DNA from: Ignisphaera sp. | GTDB lineage: Archaea > Thermoproteota > Thermoprotei_A > Sulfolobales > Ignisphaeraceae | Assembly: GCA_038889075.1 (NCBI GenBank) | Contig: JAWAHS010000001.1 | Location: 151,667 to 215,666 of the forward strand | Length of the DNA stretch: 64,000 bases | Direction: 5' to 3' | Part shown: positions 10,760 to 49,598 of the stretch, piece by piece | How the letters are laid out: each line of letters begins with the position of its first letter | Numbering within the stretch: the first letter of the stretch is position 1 | Notes under the pieces: generated by a model | Database searches by the model: none | The model's input: only the letters and a program-made list of their open reading frames with translations | What the model was told of the DNA's origin: nothing | Program-made: the position numbers and the translations under genes

Positions 10760-11722
10760 TTAACCTAGACTTAAAGCTATAGAATTTTTAATAACACTAA
10801 TGTTTATGTAACCGGCCTTGAACGTTCTACCAGAGCTGACATTATTTACAGTAACCATAGCAGGTGCAAATACATTTGGATCAACCTTATAGAGAATCTC
10901 CTCGCCAAACTGCTTTACGAGAACTACAAATGATTTACCATAATCTCTAGAGGAAGAGCTGGGAGTTTTCTTCACATACTCCTCAAGTTTTGCATCATCT
11001 GGATAGCTAACTATATAGTACGTGGATCCTCCATAGAGTAACATATCGTTTGTTCTACCCATCATTACTAAGGGATCTGGGTGGAGAGGTGCTATGGGAC
11101 ATACGCCAAATCCGTATCTAATACACTTTATATCGAATCCTATTGTGTTAAATTTAAATATGCCAGTCTCAACTATCCTTGCACTCACCTGCACACTACC
11201 AGCTATACTATTTGGTGCTACCACCATAATATAGATATTTTTAGATTCAACACCGGTTTCATTACCGATATACTTTATTACATCTTCACTAGGCATTCTA
11301 CTCGTCTCTAGGACAAGGGCAGCTTCATCAGACTGTTCTGTATAGCCTATACTTTCAAGGAGTTTCCTAGGCTTTTTAGCAAGCACTCTTGCAGGTCCAC
11401 TACCATTAGCAAAGAAATCTCCTACCCTAATTCTCCAGCCAGCTAGCTGGGAAGCAATACACGATTCGATTGGATGGTCTGTCGATACAGCTACAGCAGG
11501 CAATACTATATCTTCAATAAGTAGGGGTGTTAGGGATACTGCGGCGAGTCCTCCAAGACAAACCTTGGAGACGACTATACCAGCATCTATACTGCCACTA
11601 GCCTTAACACCAGCATCAACTACTGTCGCACCTCCTATATTTAGGATCTCTACCTTAAGCTCGTCAGCCATATCAATACCCTTTTTAATTATGTCAACTG
11701 CAAGCTTATTCATAGGTTTCAC
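10760..11722 (-). CDS. mch: Methenyl-H4MPT cyclohydrolase
   Basis: DAGV...VCLGGL, STDHP, SQLAGW, GSGPAR, MGRTND, DPNVFAPA. Confidence 0.95.
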   Translation of the reverse strand: MKPMNKLAVDIIKKGIDMADELKVEILNIGGATVVDAGVKASGSIDAGIVVSKVCLGGLAAVSLTPLLIEDIVLPAVAVSTDHPIESCIASQLAGWRIRVGDFFANGSGPARVLAKKPRKLLESIGYTEQSDEAALVLETSRMPSEDVIKYIGNETGVESKNIYIMVVAPNSIAGSVQVSARIVETGIFKFNTIGFDIKCIRYGFGVCPIAPLHPDPLVMMGRTNDMLLYGGSTYYIVSYPDDAKLEEYVKKTPSSSSRDYGKSFVVLVKQFGEEILYKVDPNVFAPAMVTVNNVSSGRTFKAGYINISVIKNSIALSLG

Positions 11723-12600
11723 GGTATTCTCACCTCTTCAATAAGTTGTAGTAGGGGCTGTAGAATAGCTTTATTCTCTTCTAGTGATACTGCGAGAGTT
11801 CCCCTTCCAGAGGCAAGGGCATCTCCTATAAATATGGCAAAAGGCTTCTTAAATACTCTTCCCCTTGCCCTAACCTCACCTACTATAGAGTCTATATAGA
11901 AGCTAGGTAGTATTCCTCCAATACCACCAACTATAATTATTCTACCACCGGACATTCTTGCACCAACAAAATCGCCACAGTTTCCCTGTACAATGATTAA
12001 CCCCCCAGTCATATATCCCCCAACCATATTACCAGCACTCTTTTCAACTATTATTGTACCGCCAGCCATACCCAACCCAATATACGATCCTGCATTACCA
12101 TGGATTATTATCGCACCATCCTTCATACCCTTTCCAGGCTTTTCACCAGGGAGCTTTGCTCCTATAAAGTTTCCAGCATCGCCAAATACCTCTATCGAGC
12201 CGCCTTTCATCTTAGCGCCCAGCCAGTTTCCAGCAGATCCCTTGATCACTATATTGCCTTTAGACATTTTATAGCCAGTTAAGGGACCAGCGCTACCCTC
12301 AACGATAATCCTTCCACCATCCATTTTATAGCCGAGATATCTGATCTTGCTAGTACCATCACCTAGTACTATAATTTCTATGTTTTCAGGATTCGGTGGA
12401 AGCGTGGCTGGGCTCTCAACATCGAATAAATCTTCTAAAACGGTCTCTCTACCACCCTCTATTATCTTAATGTTCTTTACATCACTATTTCTTAGACTAG
12501 CTATTCGATCAGGTCTAAGTGCCCTTAAATCTATTGGAACAGTAGGTCTAGCCTTTAGCCTTACATAAACGGATATCTTCTCCTGTGACATCCGAATCAC
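11719..12600 (-). CDS. fwdC: Formylmethanofuran dehydrogenase subunit C
   Basis: Repeated G-x-x-M-x-x-G beta-helix units; downstream of fwdA. Confidence 0.93.
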   Translation of the reverse strand: MIRMSQEKISVYVRLKARPTVPIDLRALRPDRIASLRNSDVKNIKIIEGGRETVLEDLFDVESPATLPPNPENIEIIVLGDGTSKIRYLGYKMDGGRIIVEGSAGPLTGYKMSKGNIVIKGSAGNWLGAKMKGGSIEVFGDAGNFIGAKLPGEKPGKGMKDGAIIIHGNAGSYIGLGMAGGTIIVEKSAGNMVGGYMTGGLIIVQGNCGDFVGARMSGGRIIIVGGIGGILPSFYIDSIVGEVRARGRVFKKPFAIFIGDALASGRGTLAVSLEENKAILQPLLQLIEEVRIP

Positions 12601-12601
12601 C

Positions 12602-14320
12602 CTATAGCTTAGGCTCCACTCTGATTTCCTTCAATCTCTTAATCTCATGATCTCCAATCACAAAATTTTCAAGTGAGATTGTATAGTACTGTTTAAATCT
12701 ATCCTTAAGATATGCCTCAAATTCCTTACGTATATCCTCAGAGATAGCTATGTATGGATTGACGGAATACGTCTTACCATAAACAGACTGTACTATTTCC
12801 CCCTCCTTGACTACAATCTCACCATCTTTAATAACACACCATGCTCTTTGAAATGCCTTTAGAATTTTCTCATATTCTCTACTAGGATCTATAACTCTGG
12901 GATCAATATCATATATTGCAACATCAGCATCGGCACCTACACCGAGATGCCCCTTCATAGTTTCTAGCCCTAGGAGTTTGGCAGGTGCAGCTCTAGTAAT
13001 GATGACCAGTTCATATAGTGTAATCTCTCTATCTATAGATGGAAGTACACACCTTCGTAGAGCTCTTTGGTTTACCTCCTTTAGTGTTTCATCTCGATAC
13101 TTTTTACTCATAGCCCACGCAAATATCTTTGGATAATCCGTAAATACTCCAGCATTAGGGTGATCTGTTGTTATAAAGCTCCTCCAAGGATCTCTTGATA
13201 GTAGTAGAACCTCAAGACCTATTGCCCACTGTATGGTATTTACATAACTCTTCTTACGGTATCTATATGGCACTATTCCTGAGGCTGCTTCATTCTCGAT
13301 ATCAGCATTTGCCCACTTCCACCTAGTTAAATGGTATAATATGAATTCAAAGGGAGCATCGGCTGTCATGGTAGTTGCTTCACCAAATGTTACCTGTCCA
13401 AGATCTAGTGTTACATAGGGATTTACATTAAGTTCATTGGCTATTGCTTCGCCACCGCTTTCCAACGTTGCCCACGAATCTCCTCCATATCCCGTAAATT
13501 GTACGTGTGTAATATGGATGCTATTTCTATTTCTTAGTGCAAAATTCCTTCCAAGTTTCATGGTATTTAGTGTTGTTATGTAGTTTCCTGGGAAGCCCAG
13601 TCTGTTGCAGTGTACATGTATTGTGTGAGGAAGATTTAGAGATTCATTTGCTTCGCCAGCTAGCTGTACTATATCCTTAGGTGTTAGGTTGTACCCGGGA
13701 ACCTGGTCGTCTAGGTCCAAACCTACTTTACCCATCATCCAAGCAGCATCGCTTCCTGGGTCAACAAGCTTTAGAGCATAGGCTTTTGTCGCATATAAAA
13801 GCCATGCTAGATAAGTCTTCAATAAATCTTTTCTATTCTCAGCCATAAGATCTAGAGCAAGCCAATTGGAATCAACGAGTACAAAGACCATTTTATCGAT
13901 AATTGGTATCGCATTAAGTTCGTCATGGGCATGCCTCATTTTTAGGGGTGCACATGCAGGTTCAGCAACAAGTGTATAGCCCATCATAGCATATTTATAC
14001 CCTATAGCAAAGACATTGGGTACAGTTCTGCCCGTCATGGCTCTTCTGAACGGTAGCTTACTTGGAATATTAGTTAGATAGTGGTCTTCAGGTCTCATAA
14101 GTCTTCCAGTATTGACCTTGGGTCCGGCTATATGGGAGTGTATATCTATTCCTCCAGCTAGAACTAATCTTCCACCAGCGTCTATTACCATAGCTTCAGA
14201 TTCTCTTATTCTACCTGGATCGACTATCCTACCATCTCTAATACCAATATCCATCAGCTCTCCTTTAATATCGTTAAGAGGATCTATCACAAAACCATTT
14301 TTTATAATGATGTCCACCAT
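12602..14320 (-). CDS. fwdA: Formylmethanofuran dehydrogenase subunit A
   Basis: Amidohydrolase HxH (DIHSHIAG), RPEDH, HVHCNRLG, HITHVQF, TTDHPNAG. Confidence 0.97.
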   Translation of the reverse strand: MVDIIIKNGFVIDPLNDIKGELMDIGIRDGRIVDPGRIRESEAMVIDAGGRLVLAGGIDIHSHIAGPKVNTGRLMRPEDHYLTNIPSKLPFRRAMTGRTVPNVFAIGYKYAMMGYTLVAEPACAPLKMRHAHDELNAIPIIDKMVFVLVDSNWLALDLMAENRKDLLKTYLAWLLYATKAYALKLVDPGSDAAWMMGKVGLDLDDQVPGYNLTPKDIVQLAGEANESLNLPHTIHVHCNRLGFPGNYITTLNTMKLGRNFALRNRNSIHITHVQFTGYGGDSWATLESGGEAIANELNVNPYVTLDLGQVTFGEATTMTADAPFEFILYHLTRWKWANADIENEAASGIVPYRYRKKSYVNTIQWAIGLEVLLLSRDPWRSFITTDHPNAGVFTDYPKIFAWAMSKKYRDETLKEVNQRALRRCVLPSIDREITLYELVIITRAAPAKLLGLETMKGHLGVGADADVAIYDIDPRVIDPSREYEKILKAFQRAWCVIKDGEIVVKEGEIVQSVYGKTYSVNPYIAISEDIRKEFEAYLKDRFKQYYTISLENFVIGDHEIKRLKEIRVEPKL

Positions 14321-14321
14321 T

Positions 14322-16064
14322 TTAAGTCAACCTTTTTAACTTTTTAACTCTATTGATAAGTCTGGAAAGGATTTCCGTATCGCATAGTACGCCTTTTGGA
14401 GGGTCTACAAGTCGCTTAACTTTAAGTGGGACATCATCTAACCTGTACACTGTTCCCTCACACTCTATACCGGTAACAGCAGATGGTATAAGGATGTCCG
14501 CAACACTAGCAGTTAATGACCAGAAAGGATCTATAACTATCTTTGGGATCTTCATTAGATTCTCAACTGCTTTTTGTGGGAAGTGCGCCACGGGATCGCT
14601 GGCAATTATTAAAGCCGCATCTACATCTGAATTTATGAGTAGATCTATAGTTGTTGTCACACCTGGAATCATCTTTGGAAATCCTCTTGAAAATTCTACA
14701 CCATATGGATAACCTGTTAGCCAAAGCATTGCATGATTTGAACCTGTAACATTGTAGTGACCACGCATTGGTAGAAGAGTCCACTTGGTCCACTCATTAA
14801 GTTCCTGTACAAGTCTTATAACCTCTTCAAGATTCTTGTACTTTGCACCTCCTTGTGTCAACCCCATGCCGAAGAATATAACACCGAATTTAGCTGTTTT
14901 CATAACCTCTACAAGTTTGTATACCTCCTCCCTTGGAACACCAGCTACCTTGGGACTCTCTATCTCATAGTCTCTTAGAGCCATTCTTAGGGCTGTGAAT
15001 AGCTCGTAATCTTTACCGGGCTCTATTTGTATAAAGATATCGGCAAGTTTAGCTGTATCACTCCTTCTCACATCTATCACAATGATCTTTCTCTCCTTAC
15101 GTCCCTTCACGAATTTTCCATCTGGAAGAACAACACGTCTAATGTGATTTATGTGTGCATTCATTGGATTACAGCCCCAGAACACTATGGTATCTGCTAG
15201 ATTCATGGCCATACCCAATGTAATTCGAACTGTACCCACCTCTTGAACCGCCAATACTGTTGGGCCATGACATAGCGTAGTAGTGTTATCAACAACACCA
15301 CGGGTAATTTCAGCAAGCTCTACGGCAAGCTCTGTAGCTTCTACACATGTATTCGACAGACCATAGATTAAGGGATACTTGGCATTAGCTAAAATTTCAG
15401 CTGCTCTATCTATGGCGTACTCAAGATCGACCTCTATAAAATTTCCATTCTTTACAGTTCTAATCATGGGGGTTAGAACTCTGTGTTTATAATAGTTCAT
15501 GAACTTTGCATGTCCTATTGGACAAGCATTTACGACTCTAACAGTTTTTTCACCATCTAGCTCCACGCTAAGGAAATCACATACTTCACCACAGAATGTA
15601 CATGGTACATCATGTACCACTTTTTTAATACCTGTTGTCAAGGATCTTTCTGTTATCTTGTAATTGATTTTCTCAGCTCCAAGGAATCTGAATATAGCAT
15701 CGAGCGGAGTTGCCTCCTCTGATGTAGCCTCAACATATACATCAACGTTTTTTAATGATGGCATACCGGTTCCTTCGGTTATTGGTAACGTTAGCACATT
15801 TGCCCAAGGACCCATTGGAACGAAAACTATACCTGGGGGAACGTCATTATTTGGTTTCACATTAACTACTATACTTCCATATACACTTGTAATCTTTGCA
15901 TTATTCTTTATACCCAGAGCTTCGATATCCTTAGGGTTCATCTCAGCTATAGCAACGGCCTTTCTATATCCTTCGCCAAACTTCCCCTCTATTTCCATGG
16001 AACGTCCTTGCTCTGTTGTACGGCCTGTTACTAGCTTAAACATCAGTGGCATTGTTGCAATCAC
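14322..16064 (-). CDS. fwdB: Fused formylmethanofuran dehydrogenase subunits D and B (Mo/W-bisPGD)
   Basis: First ~125 aa FwdD-like (LVTGRTTEQG...VPMGPWAN...GTGMP); then FwdB (CTFCGEVCD, Cys ligand in LCHGP, MRGHYNV); one uninterrupted ORF. Confidence 0.93.
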   Translation of the reverse strand: MIATMPLMFKLVTGRTTEQGRSMEIEGKFGEGYRKAVAIAEMNPKDIEALGIKNNAKITSVYGSIVVNVKPNNDVPPGIVFVPMGPWANVLTLPITEGTGMPSLKNVDVYVEATSEEATPLDAIFRFLGAEKINYKITERSLTTGIKKVVHDVPCTFCGEVCDFLSVELDGEKTVRVVNACPIGHAKFMNYYKHRVLTPMIRTVKNGNFIEVDLEYAIDRAAEILANAKYPLIYGLSNTCVEATELAVELAEITRGVVDNTTTLCHGPTVLAVQEVGTVRITLGMAMNLADTIVFWGCNPMNAHINHIRRVVLPDGKFVKGRKERKIIVIDVRRSDTAKLADIFIQIEPGKDYELFTALRMALRDYEIESPKVAGVPREEVYKLVEVMKTAKFGVIFFGMGLTQGGAKYKNLEEVIRLVQELNEWTKWTLLPMRGHYNVTGSNHAMLWLTGYPYGVEFSRGFPKMIPGVTTTIDLLINSDVDAALIIASDPVAHFPQKAVENLMKIPKIVIDPFWSLTASVADILIPSAVTGIECEGTVYRLDDVPLKVKRLVDPPKGVLCDTEILSRLINRVKKLKRLT

Positions 16065-16067
16065 ATT

Positions 16068-16934
16068 CTATTCCTTTTTAACAGGCTTTTCAGCCAACTT
16101 CTCTTTAAACAGAACCTCACCCTTTGTACTATGTGGTGTTCTTACAACCGTATCTCCATACTTCTCAATCTCCCTAGCCTCATCTGCTAAGAGGGCAGCA
16201 TACCTCATCATTTCATGCGCAGCTGCTACTATCGGGATGTACCTATCCGCTTCCTTGACTCTGAAGCATCCCTCAGTAGTTAAATCAGCGACATGCCGAG
16301 CAATTTCATAGGCTGCCATAGCTTTGACCTTTGCATACGGATTCCTAAACTCAGCGTATCGTACAGCAGTTTCCTTGTCGACTACAATTTTGGGTAGCTG
16401 TATGTTCGTAATACCTTTTTTAATCTGATCGATTACATTGTCGATCTCCCGTTGGAGGAGTCTGTAAACGCCTGTTATGGCCAGAACACGTATCAAATCG
16501 CCGTTGAAGAGCGTCATTTCAACGGGATCTAGAAATTCTCTCCTTGCCCCAATCATTGAATCAGCTAAAACTATTATATAGCCAAACCCCTTAGCTTCAA
16601 GGTCCTTTACAATTTTGGATGTCGGTGCATCAGATACTACAATGACATGTTTACCTTTCTCCTTAAGGGTTTCTCTAGCTTTTGTAGGTCCGGGGGTTGT
16701 TGCATTAGGGCTTACAACTAAATATATGTCGCAATCTTCCCTAAAGCCTTTTTCAGCGAGTTCTAAACCATACTTTTCGTCATACATCTTGGCCCCTGTT
16801 GTGACAACTCTAACCTCAATGTCCATCCTATCAGCTCTTTCATCAAGGATGTACTCTAGGAGAGGTGCTGAAGCGATGCAACCAAGTTTTAGAATACATA
16901 CCTTTACTGTTTTAGTTACCTCGGATTGAGACAT
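16068..16934 (-). CDS. mtd: F420-dependent methylene-H4MPT dehydrogenase
   Basis: KLGCIA...LDERADR, SPN...PGP, DSMIGARREFLDPVEM, AHEMMR. Confidence 0.96.
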   Translation of the reverse strand: MSQSEVTKTVKVCILKLGCIASAPLLEYILDERADRMDIEVRVVTTGAKMYDEKYGLELAEKGFREDCDIYLVVSPNATTPGPTKARETLKEKGKHVIVVSDAPTSKIVKDLEAKGFGYIIVLADSMIGARREFLDPVEMTLFNGDLIRVLAITGVYRLLQREIDNVIDQIKKGITNIQLPKIVVDKETAVRYAEFRNPYAKVKAMAAYEIARHVADLTTEGCFRVKEADRYIPIVAAAHEMMRYAALLADEAREIEKYGDTVVRTPHSTKGEVLFKEKLAEKPVKKE

Positions 16935-16992
16935 ATACCTTCCCTAAGAACTATTTTGTACTAAAGTACTTAAATCTTAATGATATAACATG

Positions 16993-18015: not shown

Positions 18016-18774
18016 ATGAGGAGAATAGAGATCTATGGGCTTAGAATAGACAAGGAAATTTTACCTGGGGATAATATAGCTGAAACGTTAATTATGGCAG
18101 CAGAAAGCAATGGTATTAGGATATTGGATGGTGATATAATTGTCGTAAGTAGTAAGGTCATAGCTAAATCAGAGGGTCGAGTTGTTCCTCTGGATAGTGT
18201 GGAGCCGTCTGAGGAGGCTATGAGAATAGCTAATATAAGTAATAAGGATCCTAAACTAGTTGAATTGATATTGAGGGAATCAAAGGAAATTCTAAAAGTA
18301 GAGAGAAACAATATTATTGTGCTTACAAGACACGGTATTGTAGGAGCTAATGCAGGAATAGATCAGTCAAACACGGGAGGTACGGGAAAGGTTGTTTTGT
18401 TGCCTATAGATCCAGATGATTCAGCTAGGAAAATTCGAAGATATATTAATGATAAGCTAGGAGTTAATGTAGCAGTAATAGTATCGGACACCTACGGCAG
18501 ACCATTTAGAGAAGGACAAATCAATCTGGCAATAGGATTTGCAGGTATATGTCCGTACAGAGACTATAGGGGTCAAAGTGATAGGGATGGGTATATACTT
18601 AGAGTTAAGAATATTGCAATTGTGGATGAGATAGCAGCTGCCGCGGAGCTCGTTATGGGCCAATCAATAGAGAATACACCCTTTGCAATAGTTCGAGGAG
18701 TTGAATATGGTCGATGTGAGGAGGCCGGTTTTAAAGACATTGTAATGCCTAAAGAGCGGTGGCTGTTCAGATAA
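18016..18774 (+). CDS. cofE: Coenzyme F420-0:L-glutamate ligase
   Basis: SSKVIAKSEGR, ANAGIDQSN, LLPIDPD, SDTYGRPFREG, DEIAAAAELVMG. Confidence 0.93.
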   Translation: MRRIEIYGLRIDKEILPGDNIAETLIMAAESNGIRILDGDIIVVSSKVIAKSEGRVVPLDSVEPSEEAMRIANISNKDPKLVELILRESKEILKVERNNIIVLTRHGIVGANAGIDQSNTGGTGKVVLLPIDPDDSARKIRRYINDKLGVNVAVIVSDTYGRPFREGQINLAIGFAGICPYRDYRGQSDRDGYILRVKNIAIVDEIAAAAELVMGQSIENTPFAIVRGVEYGRCEEAGFKDIVMPKERWLFR

Positions 18775-18808
18775 ATAATCATAACATACCATATTGTGAA
18801 GCAGGGTA

Positions 18809-18833
18809 AATTTAAATACCATAGATTTAAATT
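18809..18833 (+). promoter_or_regulatory. TATA box within a 9-bp inverted repeat upstream of the FrhB-like gene
   Basis: AATTTAAAT-accatag-ATTTAAATT; includes TTTAAATA; AT-only, so it may be chance. Confidence 0.4.
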
Positions 18834-18861
18834 CTACATATGTTACAGAGATTTAATGTGA

Positions 18862-20013
18862 TTGGCTTTGAGCAATACAAAGGTAACTAATGTATCGATG
18901 AACATAGATGTAGGTCTTTGTTCATTTTGTGGGGCATGTATAGCTATCTGTCCGACGCATGTAGGTTCAAAGAACCTTGATTACATTCCAGAGAAATCTG
19001 CCGATAAACCTGTTGTTAAGGATTTCCAAAAATGTGAGAAATGTAGACACACACTATGTATGCAGATATGTCCACAGTTAAACATACCGAGTAGCTCATT
19101 TAATACAAATAGTTACGGTTACCAAGGAGCATACTATTCGAGGTCAAGGATGCAAGAAGTATTAAGTAGGGTACAGGATGGAGGGACGACCACAACACTT
19201 CTTCTTACAGCTCTAAGAGCAAAATTTGTGGACCATGTATTAATCCTTAAAAAGGATGATGAATGGTATCCTAAACCTATGATTACTCAGAGTGAAAATG
19301 ATGTTATAGAAGCAGGTGGTTCGAAATATGTTTTCTCTCCAATCCTTTCGGTTTTAGAAGAGGTTATAGATCGAATTGATATTGGTAAAGTAGCAGTTGT
19401 TGGTATTCCGTGTCAGTTGAGGGCTCTTGAAAACATTAGTAGACTTGGATTTAAACATAATAGTATCGCAGCTCTTAGAATCGGGTTATTCTGCATGCAC
19501 AGTTTTTCAAGAGATAGAATGGAATTGATACTAAAGGAGCTTGGCGTACAATTCAAAGATGTGGTAAAAATGAATATAAAGAAAGGAAAGCTATGGTTTA
19601 CACTAAGAGATGGAAGAATATTAGATTACCCATTAAGAAAAGCAGAGAAAGTACTCAGACCAGCATGTAGACAGTGTCCAGAGCTCTTTTCACCGTATGC
19701 CGATGTAAATGTGGGATCCATAGGAGCAGAGGAGAATTGGAATAGCCTATTGATTATGAATTCGAGAGGAAGAGAGCTTGTTGAAAAAGCGATTGACATG
19801 GGACTATTAGAGATTAAGCCTATGGACAATAGCGGTACTGAAACCATAGAAAAATATGTAAATAAAAAGGTTAGTGAAGCATTAAAGTATAGAGAGCTAT
19901 ATACTAAGGAGTTCCAAAATGTTCTACTCATAACTCCTACAAAGAGAGGTAGAAAATTAAATGAGATCTTAGAACACAAGTCTGGAAGAAGTATCTATCT
20001 ATCACCACTCTAG
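18862..20013 (+). CDS. F420-binding FrhB/FdhB/FpoF-family flavoprotein with N-terminal ferredoxin domain
   Basis: CSFCGACIAICP and CEKC...CMQICP; QDGGTTTTLL, GSKY, VGIPCQ, IGLFC, CRQC, DVNVGSIG. Confidence 0.9.
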   Translation: MALSNTKVTNVSMNIDVGLCSFCGACIAICPTHVGSKNLDYIPEKSADKPVVKDFQKCEKCRHTLCMQICPQLNIPSSSFNTNSYGYQGAYYSRSRMQEVLSRVQDGGTTTTLLLTALRAKFVDHVLILKKDDEWYPKPMITQSENDVIEAGGSKYVFSPILSVLEEVIDRIDIGKVAVVGIPCQLRALENISRLGFKHNSIAALRIGLFCMHSFSRDRMELILKELGVQFKDVVKMNIKKGKLWFTLRDGRILDYPLRKAEKVLRPACRQCPELFSPYADVNVGSIGAEENWNSLLIMNSRGRELVEKAIDMGLLEIKPMDNSGTETIEKYVNKKVSEALKYRELYTKEFQNVLLITPTKRGRKLNEILEHKSGRSIYLSPL

Positions 20014-20015
20014 GG

Positions 20016-20492
20016 GTGGCTACAATGGTTAAAAAGATATTTATAGACATAGCGAAATGCATTGGCTGTCATGCTTGTGAAATAGCCTGTGAAGAAACTC
20101 ATGGAAAATCGTACATATCTGTATATGAGGTTACGGACTTCCTTACAATACCATTGAAGTGCATGCATTGTGAGAAAGCACCATGTATCAGAGTATGTCC
20201 GACTAGAGCTATGAGGAGAGCTGATGGTATCGTTGTCGTTGATGATGCTAGATGCATTGGCTGTACCTCTTGTATATCAGTATGTCCATTTGGAGCACCA
20301 GAGCTCAATATGAAAGGAATTATAGAAAAGTGTGATCAATGTAGAATGCGTACTATGAAGGGTCTACTACCAGCATGTGTAGCAGTATGCCCTACGGGAG
20401 CACTAGTATTTATGGAGGAAGAGGAGTTTACCAAATTAAGAAGATTAAATGTAGTAAAAGAACTGAGTGAAAAATTAGTAGCATATCAATGA
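20016..20492 (+). CDS. Four-cluster [4Fe-4S] electron-transfer protein (HycB/HydN/CooF-like)
   Basis: CIGCHACEIAC, CMHCEKAPCIRVCP, CIGCTSCISVCPFG, KCDQC...PACVAVCP. Confidence 0.9.
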   Translation: MATMVKKIFIDIAKCIGCHACEIACEETHGKSYISVYEVTDFLTIPLKCMHCEKAPCIRVCPTRAMRRADGIVVVDDARCIGCTSCISVCPFGAPELNMKGIIEKCDQCRMRTMKGLLPACVAVCPTGALVFMEEEEFTKLRRLNVVKELSEKLVAYQ

Positions 20493-24612: not shown

Positions 24613-24617
24613 TAATT

Positions 24618-25511: not shown

Positions 25512-25532
25512 CTTCCACCTACTAAATGTAGT

Positions 25533-41579: not shown

Positions 41580-42575
41580 ATGGTAGTGGAACTTAGATTT
41601 GGAATTGAGTTAGTCCCTTCATCACCTATTTCAGAGCTCGTTAACCTCTCTATACATGCTGAAAATCTCGGATTCAATTATGTCTGGATAACAGATCACT
41701 TTAACAATAGAAATGTCTATGTAACATTGACATCGATTGCATTGAATAGTAAGAAGATTATGCTCGGACCTGGTGTAACAAATCCCTATGTAATTAGCCC
41801 CGTCTGGACAGCATCGGCTGTGGCCTCACTAGATGAGGTATCCAATGGTAGAGCTGTCCTTGGTATCGGAGCTGGTGATAGGGCAACGCTTGAAAAGATA
41901 TCTATTGAATGGAAAAAACCTCTTGCAACAATTAGGGAAAGTGTTGAGATTATAAGGAAGCTGCTTAGGGGTGAGGTAGTTACATATAGTGGTGAAATCT
42001 TTAAAGTTTTTGGCGCGGCTCTGAACTATAAACCTGTACATGAGATACCTATATATATAGGTGCTCAGGCACCTAAAATGCTACAGCTAGCTGCATTACT
42101 GGGTGACGGTATACTGATAAATGCCTCTAACCCTAAAGACTATGAGTATGCGATGAATATTATTAGGGAAGGGGCTAAAGAAAGAATTGGGAAACTAGAT
42201 ATTGTTGCCTATACAAGCTTCTCGATAGACAGAGATAGATCTGTAGCTAGGAAAACTGTGAGACCGATAGTTGCATTTATTGTTGCTGGAGCACCAGAGG
42301 AGGTTCTCAGGAGACATGGAATAGATGTAGAGAAGGCTAAAGAGATAGGAGAAAATATATCGAAAGGAAGATTCAAGGACGCATTTTCACTTGTTACAGA
42401 TGAGATGATAGATGCATTCTCAATTTCAGGAACACCAACAGAGTGTATAGAAGTGTTAAATAGACTAGTAAAGCTTGGGGTTACCCAGATAGTATTTGGA
42501 TCACCTATAGGTAAGGATAAGAAGAGTGCATTAGAGCTAATAGCATCAGATGTAGTAGCACACTTTAAAGCATAG
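41580..42575 (+). CDS. mer: F420-dependent methylene-H4MPT reductase
   Basis: FGIELVP, WITDHFNNRNVY, GPGVTNPY, GIGAGD, GAQAPKML, LINAS, GSPIG. Confidence 0.93.
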   Translation: MVVELRFGIELVPSSPISELVNLSIHAENLGFNYVWITDHFNNRNVYVTLTSIALNSKKIMLGPGVTNPYVISPVWTASAVASLDEVSNGRAVLGIGAGDRATLEKISIEWKKPLATIRESVEIIRKLLRGEVVTYSGEIFKVFGAALNYKPVHEIPIYIGAQAPKMLQLAALLGDGILINASNPKDYEYAMNIIREGAKERIGKLDIVAYTSFSIDRDRSVARKTVRPIVAFIVAGAPEEVLRRHGIDVEKAKEIGENISKGRFKDAFSLVTDEMIDAFSISGTPTECIEVLNRLVKLGVTQIVFGSPIGKDKKSALELIASDVVAHFKA

Positions 42576-42602: not shown

Positions 42603-42899
42603 ATGAAGACCTTGAATTTTTTAGAGTCATGGGTAACAAATTTTTTAACCATTGCAATGTTTTTCTACTTAGCTTCCTTTCTTCTATACCTTGTGAGACT
42701 ATTTAAAGGTCCTACCATTCCGGATATGGTCTTAGTTATAGATGCCTTAGGCTATGATTTAGCAGCATTTCTAATTATTCTCAGCATCCTTCTTAGAAGT
42801 CCAATACTAATTCCATGTGCAATTGTTTTAACGCTATGGATCTACGCACTAGATATATATGTGGCTAAGTATCTAGAAGCAAAGGAAATGGGTGAATAG
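42603..42899 (+). CDS. Mrp Na+/H+ antiporter subunit F (MbhB-like)
   Basis: RLFKGPTIPD...D, AKYLE. Confidence 0.88.
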   Translation: MKTLNFLESWVTNFLTIAMFFYLASFLLYLVRLFKGPTIPDMVLVIDALGYDLAAFLIILSILLRSPILIPCAIVLTLWIYALDIYVAKYLEAKEMGE

Positions 42900-43287
42900 T
42901 ATGGATGTAGAGTTGATTAACTGGATTCTTGTTGTAATTGGTCAGATACTTGTTGCTATAGGAGTCCTTTGCGATCTCATTGCGGCAATACTGATGATAA
43001 GATTTCCCAACTTCTATATAAGACTTCATGCACTAACTATTGGTAGTATCGGTGGTGCTATTATTCCAGCAATAGGTGCAGCGCTGATTGCATTTGGATC
43101 GCCATTTCTTGGTATGTTTAGATGGTTTGTAGCTGGTGGAGCTCTCGTTACAGCTCTATTTATATTTATACTTGGAGGTGCAGGAGCCCATGCAATAGCT
43201 AGAGCAGCCTATAAATCTAAAGTAGTCGCATATCAACCCTGTTATGTGAATCAGTTAGCAGAGGATAGAGGTGGGGATAAGTGTTAG
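42892..43287 (+). CDS. Mrp antiporter subunit G (MbhC-like)
   Basis: RFPNFYIRLHA, AHAIARAAY. Confidence 0.9.
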   Translation: MNSMDVELINWILVVIGQILVAIGVLCDLIAAILMIRFPNFYIRLHALTIGSIGGAIIPAIGAALIAFGSPFLGMFRWFVAGGALVTALFIFILGGAGAHAIARAAYKSKVVAYQPCYVNQLAEDRGGDKC

Positions 43288-43544
43288 AACTTGCTGACCT
43301 AGTATTTGTAATGCTCGGTATTTCAGCTCTATTAAGCATCCCAGCAACTATATTAGCAATAATATCTAGAGATCTCCTAAGAGCAGTCATATTTTCAGCA
43401 TTGCAAAGTACTATGTATACGCTAATGTTCTTTCTACTTATGGCCCCTGATATAGTTCTCGTTTATGTAGCAGTTTCAATTGGGTTTATGTCATTATTGA
43501 TAATACTATTGATAAAAAAGGTGGGGAGGTATGAAAGGTACTAG
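43281..43544 (+). CDS. MbhD/DUF4040-like membrane subunit
   Basis: RDLLRAV, LMAPDIVL. Confidence 0.85.
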   Translation: MLELADLVFVMLGISALLSIPATILAIISRDLLRAVIFSALQSTMYTLMFFLLMAPDIVLVYVAVSIGFMSLLIILLIKKVGRYERY

Positions 43545-44355
43545 GATTAGAGACGCAATATTTATTGCATCGATAGTATTCGCTGTAACTATTCTTGCTG
43601 TACCCACCCTCTTAGGTGCCCTAGGTCATATGCCACCGGTAGATGTAAGAACTATCGCTATCAAATATCTCAATAATACATACAATCCATTTAATCAGAG
43701 CATATGGACATCGTCACCTGAAGCAGTAACGGCGATTGTTTGGGACTATAGAGGGCTTGATACACTGTTTGAAACCGCAGTATTTTATAGTGCTATAATA
43801 GCAGCTTTAGCACTATATAGAGAGATTTTAGGAAAGAAGGATACGTTAGAGGGTAGAGGTCTATCGATAATAGTTCAGAGATCGACAGCGATATCAATGG
43901 TTGGAATTCTAGTAGTAGGTTTTGCAACTATTCTACATGGACAGTTAACTCCTGGTGGAGGTTTCCAAGGGGGAGCCATTGCTGCTGTTACATCAGTAGT
44001 TGCTATAGTTGTTTTCTCTAGACTCTTTATAGACAGATCTAGGCTATCATATAAACACCTTCTAGTAATTAGAAATACAGCATTAGTTGGTATAGCACTA
44101 ACTGCTATAATACCTCTAATCTTCCAGCTCTTCAGCAATCAAACGACCTTTATCTTTCAGAACCAGGGTAAAGCTATGAGCGGCTTTAGCTACCCTCATA
44201 CAATTGCTGATGCCCCTATGGGTGGCAGCATATGGTTCTATAACCTATTTGAGGGATTGGCTGTGGTTTCGGCATTCAGCTTAGCTATGATTATTGTCTT
44301 CTATAGTGAAGAGCTTTCAAGAAAGACTATAGAGGGTGAGGAGAGTGGGTTCTGA
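43531..44355 (+). CDS. Mrp antiporter subunit B (MbhE+F-like)
   Basis: VTAIVWDYRGLDTLFE, HGQLTPGGGFQGG. Confidence 0.9.
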   Translation: MKGTRIRDAIFIASIVFAVTILAVPTLLGALGHMPPVDVRTIAIKYLNNTYNPFNQSIWTSSPEAVTAIVWDYRGLDTLFETAVFYSAIIAALALYREILGKKDTLEGRGLSIIVQRSTAISMVGILVVGFATILHGQLTPGGGFQGGAIAAVTSVVAIVVFSRLFIDRSRLSYKHLLVIRNTALVGIALTAIIPLIFQLFSNQTTFIFQNQGKAMSGFSYPHTIADAPMGGSIWFYNLFEGLAVVSAFSLAMIIVFYSEELSRKTIEGEESGF

Positions 44356-44776
44356 ACTGCAGATATCTATGTATGTAATCGTAATAGTTTCACTATATGT
44401 GAACATAGCTGTATGTATGTATGGTGTTATATCCAAGCCCAATTTGGTAAAGAAATTAATATCTTTTACAATACTTCAAGATTCTATCAATGCATTCCTA
44501 ATACTTATAGGATATAGATTGTGGAAGCCTGGCATACTTCTACAACCACCTGTTCTCTTAGACTGGAATCCTACATCAGAAGTCTTAAAACAATTCTTAG
44601 AAAGAGCCGTAGATCCATTACCACAGGCACTAGTTCTAACAGCTATAGTGATAGGGTTAGCTGTAAACATATTTTTAGTTACAGCCATATTACACTTGTA
44701 TAGACATTTTAATACAGTTGATATGGATGAAATAGGGAAGCTGAAGAGGGTGGTAGTTGTTGAGGAGACTACTTAG
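44336..44776 (+). CDS. Mrp antiporter subunit C (MbhG-like)
   Basis: NLVKKLI, DPLPQALVLTAIVIG. Confidence 0.92.
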   Translation: MRRVGSELQISMYVIVIVSLYVNIAVCMYGVISKPNLVKKLISFTILQDSINAFLILIGYRLWKPGILLQPPVLLDWNPTSEVLKQFLERAVDPLPQALVLTAIVIGLAVNIFLVTAILHLYRHFNTVDMDEIGKLKRVVVVEETT

Positions 44777-45266
44777 AGCACTTCCGATATTTCTATTCTC
44801 CTTTTTGCTGTACCTAGTGTACTCTGGTTCACTAAAACTCTATGATATAGCTACAGGAATCGTCGTATCCATAGCTATAGGAATTATAATAGCACCTATA
44901 GTTGTTGAAAATTGGAGAAAGGCTCTGGATATCTCTAGGTTGTTCTATCTAATTAAGTACATTATAATCTACTTCCTAATATATGAAGTCAAGGCACATC
45001 TAAACGTTATAAAAATAGGTTTGAGCCCGTCCATACAGATAAAGCCTGGTATTGTTAGAGTACCTATACACTCTAAAAGTGGCTATGCCTTAACACTTGT
45101 ATCGCTATCTATAACAAATACCCCTGGTACAGTTGTTATTGATGTTGATGAAGAGAAAAACATTCTATATGTTAATTGGATCTATGTAACAACTACAAAA
45201 ACTGAGGATATGTATAGAGAAATCGCGGAGGAGTTTGATATATATGCAAAAAAGATTTTTGACTAG
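44757..45266 (+). CDS. Mrp antiporter subunit E (MbhA-like)
   Basis: IKPGIV, SITNTPGT, LYVNWI. Confidence 0.92.
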   Translation: MLRRLLRALPIFLFSFLLYLVYSGSLKLYDIATGIVVSIAIGIIIAPIVVENWRKALDISRLFYLIKYIIIYFLIYEVKAHLNVIKIGLSPSIQIKPGIVRVPIHSKSGYALTLVSLSITNTPGTVVIDVDEEKNILYVNWIYVTTTKTEDMYREIAEEFDIYAKKIFD

Positions 45267-46931
45267 GTGATCATTATGATGTTGCATGAAGTAGGTCTGA
45301 TTCCAATACTCTTAGTATTAGCTGCTTTTATCACACCGATCTTTTCGTTATTTACACGAAATAGATACTTCTATTCGACATACATGTTGATAGTGGCTAT
45401 CATAATCACACTTTTTTCTTATAAAACGATAGACGCTGTAATGAGAGGTCATATACTCGTCTATCCCTTTGGAGGATGGCCGCCACCTTTAGGTATAGTA
45501 TACACTGTGGACTTCATGAATGGTATCCTAGGTTTTCTAGCATCTATACTATTTCTAAAGATTTCCATCTATAGTTTTTGGTACTACGGAAAAGTTGCTG
45601 GATATGAGTGGCTTACAACCTTGATGTTGCTACTCATGGCCGGTGTTATGGGTTGCATATATACAGGTGATATATTCAACTTCTTTGTTATGCTTGAGGT
45701 ACTATGCATATCCTCATATGCTCTCGTATCATTCTTTAAGAGAAGGAGATGGGCTGTAGAGGCATCCATAAGCTATGCATTTATAGGAGCATTGGCAACA
45801 ACATTCTTCCTATTTGGGGTATCATTTATATATGCAGCTTATGGTACGCTGAATATAGCTGATATAGCTGCAAAGGCCCAAGGTATCGTGCCGGATACAA
45901 TTAGCTCATGGAGTGGGGTATGTGTTGGTGATGTGTGTTTTGGCAATATAGTGTTGGCGTCAGCTGTATCAATAGCTCTAACGCTATGGGCACTAACCTT
46001 TGAGGCAGGTCTCTTTCCAAATAACTACTGGCTTCCAAGCGCATATACTGAAGCACCGACACCTGCTTCCGCTCTATTTGCTGGAATAGTTGATAAGGTT
46101 GGTACATACGGTGTACTCAGGATAATGCTGACAATATTCTCTGGTGGCTCAATGCTGATGTTCAAAGTTTTTGAGATACCCTTTAGAGATCTTGTACTAA
46201 TGATTTTAAGTATGCTTGGTATAGTGTCAGGGTATCTGGGCTCACTCGTAATGGTTATACAAAGGGATGTGAAGAGATTCCTCTCTTACAGTACTATAAG
46301 CCACATAGGGCTACTCTTCATACCATTTATAGGTTTTACATCCAACCATCCTGAGGAGATCATGGCCAAGACACTTGCGGCGATACTATTCCATAGTATT
46401 GTACACGCCTTAAGCGAATCCATGCTATTTACAGGCTTTGGAACCTTGGCTACCATAGCAGGTAGTAGAAAAATAGATGATATGAGAGGTTATGGAAGGC
46501 GATATCCGGCCATAGCACTGGCTGTTACTATAGGGATGCTAAGTTTACTGGGTTTAGCGCCTCTTCCAGGCTTCTTTAGTAAATACATGATATTTCTACC
46601 AATGATAGAGGCATCTGCATACATACAAGCTCTATCAATCATAATCATCTCTGGGATCTCGGCTATAGGCTACTTTAGGGTAATCTATACACTATTTCTA
46701 CCTAAATTAGAGGATTCTAAGAAGAGTGAGTACGGGATTGTATTACCATCGATACTATGCATTAGTGTGGCATTAATTCTTTTAATACTTGGACTAACGT
46801 ATATAACGTATGATATTTACAGTATATTAGTGAGTGGTAGCAAAATGGTGGTATCTACTAATGGTATTAGGAAATACATAATGACTGTAGATTCGATCTA
46901 TCTGAAGCTATTTACCGCAGGTGGTGGATAG
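45267..46931 (+). CDS. Mrp antiporter subunit D (MbhH/NuoM-like)
   Basis: GGWPPPLGI, GDIFNFFVMLEV, WLPSAYTEAP, KRFLSYSTISH, PLPGFFSK. Confidence 0.92.
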   Translation: MIIMMLHEVGLIPILLVLAAFITPIFSLFTRNRYFYSTYMLIVAIIITLFSYKTIDAVMRGHILVYPFGGWPPPLGIVYTVDFMNGILGFLASILFLKISIYSFWYYGKVAGYEWLTTLMLLLMAGVMGCIYTGDIFNFFVMLEVLCISSYALVSFFKRRRWAVEASISYAFIGALATTFFLFGVSFIYAAYGTLNIADIAAKAQGIVPDTISSWSGVCVGDVCFGNIVLASAVSIALTLWALTFEAGLFPNNYWLPSAYTEAPTPASALFAGIVDKVGTYGVLRIMLTIFSGGSMLMFKVFEIPFRDLVLMILSMLGIVSGYLGSLVMVIQRDVKRFLSYSTISHIGLLFIPFIGFTSNHPEEIMAKTLAAILFHSIVHALSESMLFTGFGTLATIAGSRKIDDMRGYGRRYPAIALAVTIGMLSLLGLAPLPGFFSKYMIFLPMIEASAYIQALSIIIISGISAIGYFRVIYTLFLPKLEDSKKSEYGIVLPSILCISVALILLILGLTYITYDIYSILVSGSKMVVSTNGIRKYIMTVDSIYLKLFTAGGG

Positions 46932-48436
46932 TGGAGATACTTAAGTACATAGCTATAGTTGTAGCGCTACTTGTAATTGCAGCAAGCAGACTCAGAAGTA
47001 AAATTATGAAAAGTATCGGGTACTTAGTTCTTATTGCAATGCCGCTCTACTCAATTATTTCAGGAGGACCCTGGGACTTCACATCATCCATTATTGCAAC
47101 ACTAGCAGCTATAATAGGATTCGCATCATCAATGTATACAAATGGTTATCAGGAGCTTAAGTACGGCGGAGGTCATCTGCATATACTTATAGACGTATTC
47201 GCAGTAACGGTGTATACCACCTTTGTAGCAATGAATGTTATATCATTTATAGTGTGTTGGCTAATTGCAGAGATGGTTGGATTCTTTACCATAGTGTATG
47301 AGGTTGAGAGAAGGACGCTCGCAGCTGGACTAAGATATATAGCTGTATCCATGGTACCCTCAGATATGGCGTTAATGACTCTTTTAGCATCTCTATCTAT
47401 TAAAATGCCAATCACCGAAGCACTATTTACTCCAATTACTGAAGTAGCTCATCTGCTAAGCGGATTGCCCCCAGTACTATACATTATAATGGTACTAGGG
47501 TTCATAGCTAAGGCTGCTGTAATACCACTCCACTTTTGGCTTCCAGATGCACATTCACTTGCCCCAGCTCCAGCCTCGGCAATACTATCTGGTATTATGG
47601 TTAAAATGGGTGTATATGGTGTGCTCAGGGTGCTACCATCGATAGATACGGCCTATACGCCTACTATATTTCTATTCTTTGGCATTCTAACAAGTATCTA
47701 TGGAGGTCTTCTAGCGTTAGTACAAACAGATATTAAGAGAATCCTCGCATACAGTACAATTGAACATACGGGGCTCATAATATCCGTACTCATGCTGTAT
47801 AGGTTGTCCAACCTTTCAGTATTTTTAGAGGCTGCCTTAGCCATTATATGTTCGCATGCAATGTACAAAGCTGCACTATTCCTAAACTCAGGTTCCATTG
47901 AAGTCTACTCACATACAAGAGAGATATCCAAATTGGGTTATCTAGCAAGAGAAATACCTGCTGAGGCATTTTCAGCACTAATCTCTATTCTATCTTTAAT
48001 GGGAGTACCCCCAACAATAGGATTCATAGCAAAGCTGTACCTCCTCATCTCATTGCTGTCGTATTTAATTGTAAACCCAGTAGTAGGAACGGTAATTGTA
48101 GTCTCTACATCGGTCGCTATAGTACTGGCAGCAATATACAGCATTAGATATATTACCGTATATTGGGGTACATGGAGAGGTGGTACAGAGGCTAAGAAAA
48201 CGGGTATAGAGCTTTTAAGAAGATTGACTATATGGGAGTGCATACCTGCGTGGCTGGGTATTGTCGGTACACCTTTAGTCATAATTGCCATATGGGGAAT
48301 TGAGACAATGAAACCCGATATATTAGCACCACTACTTCTAGCTATCCTGCTATTTCTAGCACTTGTCTACTATATATACATGCGTCTAAGGACAGCATCA
48401 AGAGATATGCAGTGGCTTGGGGGTGCAGTACCGTGA
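46931..48436 (+). CDS. Antiporter-like hydrogenase membrane subunit (HyfB/HycC/NuoL-like)
   Basis: KAAVIPLHFWLPDAHSLAPAPASAILSGIMVKMG, KRILAYST, HAMYKAALF, PPTIGF. Confidence 0.9.
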   Translation: MEILKYIAIVVALLVIAASRLRSKIMKSIGYLVLIAMPLYSIISGGPWDFTSSIIATLAAIIGFASSMYTNGYQELKYGGGHLHILIDVFAVTVYTTFVAMNVISFIVCWLIAEMVGFFTIVYEVERRTLAAGLRYIAVSMVPSDMALMTLLASLSIKMPITEALFTPITEVAHLLSGLPPVLYIIMVLGFIAKAAVIPLHFWLPDAHSLAPAPASAILSGIMVKMGVYGVLRVLPSIDTAYTPTIFLFFGILTSIYGGLLALVQTDIKRILAYSTIEHTGLIISVLMLYRLSNLSVFLEAALAIICSHAMYKAALFLNSGSIEVYSHTREISKLGYLAREIPAEAFSALISILSLMGVPPTIGFIAKLYLLISLLSYLIVNPVVGTVIVVSTSVAIVLAAIYSIRYITVYWGTWRGGTEAKKTGIELLRRLTIWECIPAWLGIVGTPLVIIAIWGIETMKPDILAPLLLAILLFLALVYYIYMRLRTASRDMQWLGGAVP

Positions 48437-48729
48437 GCTATTCGATGGGATCTGTAATACAACGGTTAGTTGAACGTCTTCAGCGTCGAGTAGAGTATAC
48501 ACTTGTCCTCAGTAAAGGATTCTACAATATGATAGTGGGTAAAATAATTAAAGCACACAATTGTATTGCCAGAGAAGATGTTGCTATAAAAATACTAAAA
48601 TCTATCGCACTATTCATACTGAGGCTTCAGTGCAGCTTAGAGGATGCATTATCAGCTACATCAATTTTATTTGAACTCTTCACATCTATTTCAATAATAC
48701 TTGTGATGGTGCTGGTATGGCATTTGTAG
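48433..48729 (+). CDS. Small membrane-anchored protein of the hydrogenase operon
   Basis: GTG overlaps the upstream TGA (GTGA); amphipathic helix plus one C-terminal TM; ORF track 48412-48729. Confidence 0.6.
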   Translation: MSYSMGSVIQRLVERLQRRVEYTLVLSKGFYNMIVGKIIKAHNCIAREDVAIKILKSIALFILRLQCSLEDALSATSILFELFTSISIILVMVLVWHL

Positions 48730-49598
48730 AGACTGTGTTAGCCATAGTTACTTCAATGCTTCTATACATTTTTCTTCCACCTCTTCTTGACGGAATTGAG
48801 AGGAAAATTAGGGCAAAGATACAGACTCGCTATGGTCCTCCAACAATCCTGCAGACCTGGTATGACATAATAAAGCTTTCCTCTAAAGAACTTAGGATAC
48901 CTCCTACTCTACAATATAGCATATTTCTATTCATTCTCGCACTTTCACTTTCAATTACAACGCTGTATCTGCTATCCTATATTCTAATATCATTTGATAT
49001 ATACACACTGACGATAATTATTGTATTAATCATCTCTACACACAGCCTACTAATACTCGTAAGCACACTATCATCGAATCCATTCTCAATAATTGGTGTT
49101 TTTAGAGGCTTAACCATCGATATAGTGAATGAAATGGGATTCATAGCGTCCATACCCCTGTACTATTTATCTATAAAGACCTTTGATTCATCAGTAAAAT
49201 CTTTCATACTTCTACTATTCTCAATACTATTTATATTTATCGTATCCTATGTAGGTAGTAAGAGACTTCCATATGATTTGCACGAAGCTGAACCAGAATT
49301 AGCTTCAGGTTCAATAATCGAATTCTCAGGGCCGATGCTAGCACTCTATCTCTATCTACATCTCATTGATAGATATACCATAATTGCTCTACCCATAACG
49401 ATGGGGATAGGTATAGGATTAGCAGTAACACCATTTGTCTCACTGTTTTTCATTCATGTTATTGCTGCATTAGTATATATAATATTTGGTGCTGTTGCCG
49501 CACTTCTAGGACGGTCTAGAATTGATATAGCTGTCAAAACACTTATGCTTATATACTTATTAATCATTATAGCATGGATAGTGGTGAAGCTAATATGA
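48717..49598 (+). CDS. Hydrogenase membrane subunit HycD/NuoH-like
   Basis: GIERKIRAKIQTRYGPP, QTWYD..KL, RLPYDLHEAEPELASG. Confidence 0.92.
   Translation: MAFVETVLAIVTSMLLYIFLPPLLDGIERKIRAKIQTRYGPPTILQTWYDIIKLSSKELRIPPTLQYSIFLFILALSLSITTLYLLSYILISFDIYTLTIIIVLIISTHSLLILVSTLSSNPFSIIGVFRGLTIDIVNEMGFIASIPLYYLSIKTFDSSVKSFILLLFSILFIFIVSYVGSKRLPYDLHEAEPELASGSIIEFSGPMLALYLYLHLIDRYTIIALPITMGIGIGLAVTPFVSLFFIHVIAALVYIIFGAVAALLGRSRIDIAVKTLMLIYLLIIIAWIVVKLI

Follow-up and report, generated by a model that had tools for sequence, protein, structure and literature searches.

Many non-methanogenic archaea possess an F420-dependent Wood-Ljungdahl pathway built on tetrahydromethanopterin (H4MPT) but lack Frh, Fpo and Fno, and the source or sink of their F420H2 is left open in genome reconstructions presented in parts of PMC7886697 and PMC10667645. 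The question arises for Ignisphaera sp., in which positions 151,667 to 215,666 of contig JAWAHS010000001.1 (assembly GCA_038889075.1), a stretch of 64,000 nucleotides (nt) that we call the window, hold at 18862..20492 a gene for an FrhB-like F420 flavoprotein closely followed by one for a small Fe-S protein, here named CooF1. A sequence-only reading had placed an FrhB/FpoF-type gene and a four-cluster Fe-S gene at these positions and offered two roles for them: a swappable F420 head for the Mrp-type group 4 [NiFe] hydrogenase encoded in the same window, or a soluble ferredoxin:F420 oxidoreductase. Open reading frames (ORFs), Pfam domains and invariant cysteines bear out the two genes, and the evidence favours the second role. 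We tentatively read frhB-cooF1, at slightly below even confidence, as a two-subunit ferredoxin-linked F420 oxidoreductase that belongs to the F420/H4MPT Wood-Ljungdahl gene set and serves Mtd and Mer.

The genome (G000) comprises 1.95 Mb in 25 contigs and is 99.58% complete; its closest public relatives are hot-spring metagenome-assembled genomes (MAGs) labelled Ignisphaera sp., in which the FrhB-like protein is 71-81% identical. Pfam and NCBIfam scans find H4MPT Wood-Ljungdahl and cofactor genes densely packed in the window. Directly 5' of the frhB-like gene lies cofE, for F420-0:gamma-glutamyl ligase (18016..18774, +; Pfam F420_ligase, 240.9 bits), and frhB-cooF1 is divergent from the series ftr-mtd-fwdDB-fwdA-fwdC-mch (10760-17928, -), with cdh about 39 kb away. 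In that series mtd (16068..16934, -; Pfam MTD, 388 bits) encodes the F420-dependent methylene-H4MPT dehydrogenase, which uses the F420 pool, and a second F420H2 user, the F420-dependent methylene-H4MPT reductase, is encoded by mer at 41580..42575 (+; NCBIfam Mer, 450.7 bits, cut-off 276).

The first gene of the pair (18862..20013, +) encodes 383 amino acids and is assigned to the FrhB/FpoF family by Pfam, NCBIfam and solved-structure matches. Pfam places Fer4_10 at residues 13-71, FrhB_FdhB_N at 90-166 (66 bits) and FrhB_FdhB_C at 176-323 (125 bits), and the protein is thus built from an N-terminal 2x[4Fe-4S] ferredoxin domain, a flavin adenine dinucleotide (FAD)/F420 core with one [4Fe-4S] cluster and a C-terminal tail (362-383). 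The QDGG motif, four core cysteines and eight ferredoxin-domain cysteines are invariant in the alignments. Every curated NCBIfam cut-off for a canonical FrhB or FpoF is missed, and we rejected both memberships: the FrhB equivalog TIGR03289 gives 183.6 bits against 331.5, the subfamily model PRK09325 206.8 against 269, and the FpoF/FqoF models NF040616 and NF006808 163 against 475 and 164 against 444. Among solved structures FwdI matches best (8rja_E; E 3.9e-48, residues 14-350, 167.5 bits over the full length), and the zeta subunit of the acetyl-CoA decarbonylase/synthase (ACDS; 8riu_B) also matches (E 4e-41). When only the core is scored, FrhB comes first with 150 bits, followed by FwdI (142), ACDS zeta (128) and solved FdhB chains (51-58). 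An FdhB-type identity was rejected, the core being that far from FdhB and the sole Fdh-alpha-like gene in the genome being unlinked and below cut-off. A 160-row FastTree, which does not include the FwdI and ACDS zeta sequences among its rows, puts the protein in a 63-row clade (support 100) of fused forms and of forms from Thermoproteota that are associated with cofE, CooF, fwd or cdh; the 24 rows scoring above the NCBIfam FrhB subfamily cut-off all fall elsewhere. A separate FrhB-like fusion, P0053 (517 amino acids), has an N-terminal region that by eye resembles a NiFe-hydrogenase small subunit, and its FrhB part is confirmed by a family scan.

Two known systems frame this architecture. FrhB of FrhABG gives the highest core-only score, over the FAD/[4Fe-4S] core, but the N-terminal ferredoxin domain is missing from it, and its gene accompanies frhA and frhG. 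Soluble FpoF/FqoF shares both the ferredoxin domain and the FrhB core, as well as the reaction proposed here, but differs in its family score (163 vs 475 bits), in the Fpo/Fqo complex, which this genome lacks, and in lacking the extra four-cluster subunit, which is a fused domain in some relatives. Soluble FpoF of Methanosarcina mazei is said to work as a ferredoxin:F420 oxidoreductase.

The second gene encodes a CooF/HycB-type protein with four [4Fe-4S] clusters; the product of 20016-20492 scores 77.8 bits against Fer4_11 (PF13247; cut-off 26.2), and its 16 cysteines, in four CxxCxxCxxxC-type motifs, are all invariant across 10 aligned homologues. The 2-nt gap to frhB reported earlier holds solely for a GTG start (20016..20492, +, 158 amino acids). 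An ATG at 20025 (20025..20492, 155 amino acids) sits behind a purine-rich GGGGTGG and agrees with the N-termini of three orthologues (gaps of 10-12 nt), and is therefore the likely start, with a gap of 11 nt. The two genes are tightly coupled under either start, so this part of the earlier description stands and only the spacing changes. Its claim that CooF1 is a paralogue of the last gene of the hydrogenase operon also holds: CooF1 and that gene's product, CooF2 (53550-54116, +), are 43% identical (E 2e-42) and both carry the motifs CIGCTSCIxxCPFGxPEL and APCIxVCPT. In a 37-row CooF tree, all CooFs adjacent to a GltD-like gene form one 24-row clade (support 98/99), which takes in the CooFs near frhB in loci L020, L021 and L051. 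Outside it lie CooF1 with its three orthologues, the FrhB-fused domains and the CooFs linked to carbon monoxide dehydrogenase (CODH), with no resolution among these outer groups. CooF1 is therefore no recent copy of the hydrogenase adaptor.

Among solved structures, CooF1 matches HycB (7z0s_B, 2.8e-21), HycB3/HycB4 of the hydrogen-dependent CO2 reductase (HDCR) and 9mqx_E (152 amino acids, nearly the whole of CooF1). Like HycB with FdhF in Escherichia coli formate hydrogenlyase (FHL; 7Z0S) and CooF with CooS in CO-dependent hydrogenases, it is a Fer4_11 protein beside a catalytic head, but CooF1 accompanies a hydrogenase in 0 of the 60 loci examined and the hydrogenase here has CooF2. In AorABC and WOR-type complexes (8C0Z chain C, 9MQX chain E) a CooF-like polyferredoxin wires the catalytic subunit to an FAD subunit; the adaptor is small and four-clustered as in CooF1, with a tungstopterin enzyme there and an F420 flavoprotein head here. 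The same genome has units resembling these complexes, namely a CooF-like gene that immediately precedes one for an aldehyde:ferredoxin oxidoreductase (AOR) (G000:C13:36489-38898) and a fused GltD-CooF of 534 amino acids beside an alcohol dehydrogenase (ADH) and a second AOR (G000:C14:8294-13176).

The FrhB-like protein and CooF1 probably bind each other. Natural FrhB-CooF fusions (P0008, P0023 and P0026; 531-550 amino acids) carry the CooF-like domain at the C-terminus and occur in two lineages, one named by the sources as Methanococcus aeolicus and Methanotorris igneus, with P0023 coming from a Desulfurococcaceae MAG; genome scans with the Methanococcales fusion proteins as queries returned generic CooF-motif matches only. 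In 201 genomes of the phylum of a Methanobrevibacter entry, the 7 of about 45 candidates scored per genome included no match at E<=1e-70, too thin a sample to carry weight. Among 40 related FrhB loci, 5 have CooF fused to the FrhB-like protein or encoded right beside it, and in 9 it lies inside the fetched flanks. Complex prediction for FrhB and CooF1 gave an ipSAE of 0.77 (0.76-0.78 over three runs), compared with 0.00 for the best of 3 controls; the mark used is met by 116 of 157 solved complexes and 2 of 215 mismatched pairs, counts that are only rough since own alignments were used. At least 95% of contacts are common to the runs, and the partner's predicted local distance difference test (pLDDT) is at least 87. 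In the predicted interface, the ferredoxin domain (29-36, 57-65) and tail (362-383) of FrhB face the cluster-1/cluster-4 region of CooF1, and the model would thus seat CooF1 on the ferredoxin domain, clasped by the C-terminal tail; the fusion topology agrees with such an arrangement. A 2284-nt contig from an RNA-Seq library (24 differences) covers 18119-20401, from cofE into cooF1, and a separate 7.7-kb contig (10273-17938) from the RNA library runs from mch to ftr over the fwd genes. Positions 24475-26475 have zero cover in that RNA library and full cover in a DNA run. Cover in RNA runs X23 and X24 is nil or almost nil, which is no evidence of absence.

Across 251 genomes of the class (FrhB clade at E<=1e-60; HycE-like fused large subunit of the hydrogenase at E<=1e-150), the FrhB clade occurs in 16 genomes and F420-dependent Mtd in 15, with both in 14. 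One genome has Mtd without the FrhB clade, and the two with the reverse pattern are 59% and 67% complete. The fused large subunit is present in about 96 genomes, of which about 84 lack the FrhB clade (hand count). Conversely, an orthologue of the hydrogenase is found in 12 of the 16 FrhB-clade genomes and not in the other 4, one of them 99% complete. G209, at 99% completeness, combines the FrhB clade with only an unfused large subunit (43% identity), and G253 (Methanofastidiosia) a fused FrhB-CooF-like ORF with only an unfused one (36% identity). The FrhB-CooF1 pair tracks the F420-dependent C1 pathway, not the hydrogenase. Gene neighbourhoods show the same: the 40 related FrhB loci contain cofE (9, in each adjoining the FrhB-like gene), mer (7), fwd genes (8) and cdhA (4), and none contains hydrogenase or Mrp genes. 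A cofE-like gene is present in 15, often adjoining the FrhB-like gene; its window homologue (24618-25511, -; 297 amino acids) has a weak F420_ligase match (40.5 bits) and is an uncharacterised CofE-like companion of the FrhB clade.

Two genomes of the same genus, G107 and G199, lack both FrhB and Mtd. There (L242:2-8754, L243:97-8980) a co-directional string encodes the hydrogenase, a GltD-like protein, CooF, an MtdA/B-like protein, ftr, fwdD/B, fwdA, fwdC and mch, in which the MtdA/B-like gene is an NAD(P)-type methylene-H4MPT dehydrogenase (Mpt_N domain, 73-74 bits). In the window, cofE-frhB-cooF1 fills the place upstream of ftr, and mtd stands between ftr and fwd. The flavoprotein-CooF cassette therefore changes along with the dehydrogenase cofactor, which links FrhB-CooF1 with the turnover of F420 for the C1 pathway. 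The G107/G199 string resembles a C1 module of NAD(P) type, and the window's genome also encodes an MtdA/B-like homologue (G000:C4:23157-23996, 66-70% identity).

Within this near-complete genome, frhB-cooF1 is the only recognisable F420 link. The sequence-only reading had called the pair an orphan, and this is right for most partners: there is one FrhB-family match genome-wide, and no frhAG, fdhA or fpo operon that groups with this FrhB was found elsewhere in the genome. Judged by their neighbouring genes, the four loci for NiFe large subunits comprise two of group-4 Mrp type (window and contig C2), one Hdr/Mvh-linked (C8) and one sulfhydrogenase-like (C5); no group 3a hydrogenase (frhA/frhG) is among them or beside frhB. 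No Fpo/Fqo membrane complex is present in the genome, in which only two NuoD-like genes were found; both of these complex-I-like large subunits retain the NiFe CxxC motifs, and therefore neither is Fpo. For Fno, PF03807 matches were set aside as they resemble ProC-type and prephenate-dehydrogenase-type proteins by length and sequence; Fno was therefore tested with TIGR01915, and nothing in the genome passed the cut-off (28 vs 150 bits). The part of the orphan claim that does not strictly stand is the absence of fdhA, because the best NCBIfam match of an unlinked 655-residue molybdopterin protein (G000:C8:17181-19148) is Fdh-alpha (233 bits, cut-off 666). On either side of this orphan molybdopterin oxidoreductase gene lie a URO-D-like gene and a HEPN/nucleotidyltransferase pair.

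Direct observation covers the domains present, unbroken cofactor motifs, the close coupling of the genes, the fusions, the shared occurrence with Mtd and the lack of any recognisable alternative; the FrhB-CooF1 interface comes from a predicted model, and a ferredoxin partner and the direction of electron flow are our inference. In a two-subunit ferredoxin-linked F420 oxidoreductase, hydride would be exchanged with F420 at the FAD of the FrhB-like subunit, and single electrons would pass through the core [4Fe-4S] cluster and the two clusters of the N-terminal ferredoxin domain into the four-cluster wire of CooF1, whose free end would exchange them with a low-potential carrier. That this carrier is ferredoxin is our first choice, held no more firmly than the enzyme assignment as a whole. 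The enzyme would supply F420H2 for Mtd and Mer when the pathway reduces CO2, and would drain it when the pathway runs oxidatively. Parts of PMC9012536 and PMC10667645 contain precedents, proposing soluble FpoF/FqoF as a ferredoxin:F420 oxidoreductase and reading an orphan FrhB in the same way in Wood-Ljungdahl-bearing Korarchaeia. Published work already covers orphan FrhB in non-methanogens with a Wood-Ljungdahl pathway, as well as FrhB paralogues that plug into varied enzymes (passages of PMC10667645, PMC7886697 and PMC9012536). Literature searches brought up no account of FrhB paired with, or fused to, a CooF/HycB protein; Supplementary Figures 16 and 17 of PMC11493965, on FwdI/zeta homologues, may already show Thermoproteota relatives.

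Several points weigh against this assignment. Ferredoxin as the far-end partner of CooF1 is something we infer. FpoF alone is reported to run the ferredoxin:F420 reaction, so a dedicated four-cluster extension suggests docking to an enzyme and not free ferredoxin. FwdI and ACDS zeta, the closest relatives that have been characterised, dock onto an enzyme complex by their N-terminal ferredoxin domain, as described in a portion of PMC11493965. The 63-row clade has members encoded within fwd operons (L034, L040) and others whose gene immediately precedes cdhA (L039, L042). The hydrogenase operon has mer immediately in front of it, and its family of hydrogenases accepts different CooF-linked heads. 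Four of the 16 FrhB-clade genomes come from one genus; since related genomes do not count as independent cases, some five lineages underlie the co-occurrence. Likeness to solved ferredoxin-domain/polyferredoxin contacts may add part of the predicted-complex score, and the RNA-library contigs are no proof of a single cofE-frhB-cooF1 transcript. Lastly, cofC, cofD and cofE are in the window and neither CofG nor CofH (FO synthase) was found in the 99.58%-complete genome; F420 supply may depend on scavenged FO, or alternatively on an unrecognised FO synthase.

Among the other explanations, the one that survives best, though we consider it unlikely, is a plug-in of the FwdI/zeta kind, in which FrhB-CooF1 docks on formylmethanofuran dehydrogenase (Fwd) and/or the CODH of acetyl-CoA synthase (ACS) and CooF1 replaces the FwdG/FwdF bridge. 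Oxidation of formylmethanofuran (formyl-MFR) or CO would then reduce F420, as in Ca. Ethanoperedens. According to a part of Lemaire, Wegener and Wagner 2024 (PMC11493965), FwdI docks on Fwd through FwdG and zeta on CODH, and substrate oxidation is coupled to F420 reduction. In Ca. Ethanoperedens thermophilum, FwdI (8RJA chain E) and ACDS zeta (8RIU chain B) have the same order as the FrhB-like protein, a 2x[4Fe-4S] domain and then an FrhB-like FAD/[4Fe-4S] core, all three belong to H4MPT C1 pathways, and the two are the best solved-structure matches. The candidate docking partner for the far end of CooF1 is close by, fwdC, fwdA and fused fwdD/B occupying 11719..16064 (-) in the divergent series; no FwdF passes the cut-off in the genome (best 48 vs 375 bits), and the free end of CooF1 may therefore still pair with Fwd, with the clade members in fwd operons and upstream of cdhA pointing the same way. 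However, the F420-reductase core is no nearer FwdI than FrhB. FwdI and zeta are encoded in fwd/cdh operons and dock straight onto FwdG or CdhA/epsilon, whereas the window's gene lies outside such operons, with cofE and cooF1, and CooF1 is predicted to take the docking face of the ferredoxin domain; the host here also has no mcr. The fwd and cofE-frhB-cooF1 stretches fall on separate RNA-library contigs. By a thermodynamic argument in the same source (PMC11493965, in part), F420-coupled Fwd/CODH runs in the oxidative direction only, which may or may not be the direction in this organism.

More doubtful still is the role that the sequence-only reading had put first, an alternative hydrogenase head that docks via CooF1 on the HycF/HycG arm or on CooF2 and forms an ion-translocating F420H2:H+ oxidoreductase, or its H2:F420 reverse. 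The Mrp-type operon (42892..52319, +), given here for comparison and with no shown membership in the FrhB system, includes genes for a HycE-like fused 30k+49k large subunit (49574-51292, +), a HycF-like protein (51289-51801, +) and a HycG-like protein (51798-52319, +). It is followed by the hydrogenase's own head, a GltD-like NAD(P)H flavoprotein (52577-53599, +), and its own adaptor, CooF2, which is the last gene of the operon.

The general premise, that CooF-type proteins link interchangeable heads, is borne out in this hydrogenase family. Among 20 operons from 20 genomes, 18 contain GltD-like and CooF2-like genes, placed at either end of the operon (3' or 5') or within it; the module stands at window 52577-54116 and in loci L137-L148 and L151-L156. 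The other 2 (L149:11616-14147 and L150:333-3736, two genomes of another family) have CooF, a CooS-type CODH (Prismane family, 628-645 bits) and a CooC-like gene instead, so heads are exchanged within the family. The GltD-CooF module suggests an NAD(P)H-linked, ion-translocating hydrogenase; in Staphylothermus marinus a short SudA-like protein, Smar_1055, is numbered just before such an operon (Smar_1057-1071), with no function assigned in the part of PMC2678158 that covers it. A second GltD-like and CooF pair in the window's genome lies at the very start of a contig (G000:C13:49-1557; upstream unassembled); in the CooF tree the hydrogenase-linked pairs from other members of the genus lie nearer to its CooF than to the window's CooF2, and its GltD orthologue in G102 stands without CooF or hydrogenase.

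For FrhB-CooF1 as one more such head, CooF1 lies outside the GltD-linked clade, as do the CODH-linked CooFs among others, so its tree position is compatible with hydrogenase docking; mer is 317 nt upstream of the operon. The sister genomes keep the idea alive, the hydrogenase and C1 genes being neighbours in the genus, as do the 12 of 16 FrhB-clade genomes with a hydrogenase orthologue and the lack of another F420H2 sink in this one. Direct support was not found: FrhB occurs in 0 of the 20 hydrogenase operons, the hydrogenase encodes its own adaptor and head, and 22 kb separate it from frhB-cooF1 in the window. The hydrogenase-free FrhB loci, the many hydrogenase-bearing genomes without FrhB and the cases of G209 and G253 point the same way, and by standard potentials little free energy would remain from the F420/H2 couple to drive ion translocation. 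If this reading were true, FrhB-CooF1 and GltD-CooF2 would compete for the HycF site, one membrane module would link H2 to NAD(P)H or F420, and the complex would be an undescribed ion-translocating F420H2:H+ oxidoreductase.

Least probable is an Fe-S-wired NAD(P)H:F420 oxidoreductase of FrhB-CooF1 and a GltD-like flavoprotein replacing the missing Fno, for which the CooF-ATP-grasp-cofE-frhB string of L020, L021 and L051 (preceded by a GltD-like gene in L020 and L051; L021 begins at a contig end), an FrhB-like fusion to a GltD/NfnB-like flavoprotein (P0125, 906 amino acids, cluster of 14 members) and the spare GltD-CooF units of the genome (the C13:49-1557 pair and the C14:8294-9898 fusion) can be cited, but in the window's genus no GltD-like gene adjoins frhB (L017-L019), the CooFs of L020, L021 and L051 are within the GltD-linked clade and CooF1 is not, the spare C14 unit adjoins AOR and ADH, and P0125 sits in the other half of the FrhB tree.

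The remaining window genes include mfnB, ADP-forming acetyl-CoA synthetase, cofD, cofC, hypF/C/E, an mtrH-like gene, cdhA, cdhB and cdhC. The lone MtrH-family gene (40597-41475, -; NCBIfam subfamily 352.9 bits, cut-off 287) lies beside mer, with no further mtr subunits in the window; in L022 and L024 the FrhB-like gene is followed by MtrH-like genes. The genome yielded no mcrA but does hold an hdrC-hdrB-hdrA/mvhD-mvhG-mvhA cluster (G000:C8:35969-41818). The MvhA-like ORF of this cluster is without the C-terminal CxxC motif, the matching segment being in a separate frame of 146 amino acids, and mvhA may be split, frameshifted or equipped with a recoded codon.

For non-methanogenic archaea with an F420-dependent H4MPT Wood-Ljungdahl pathway, this locus is a concrete two-subunit candidate for the F420H2 link, and one that tracks Mtd across lineages. 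The fusions in cultured Methanococcales, by the names given in the sources, make the candidate testable. The comparison with the sister genomes points to flavoprotein-CooF cassettes as exchangeable units by which hyperthermophilic Thermoproteota set the cofactor used in the C1 pathway and by group 4 hydrogenases.

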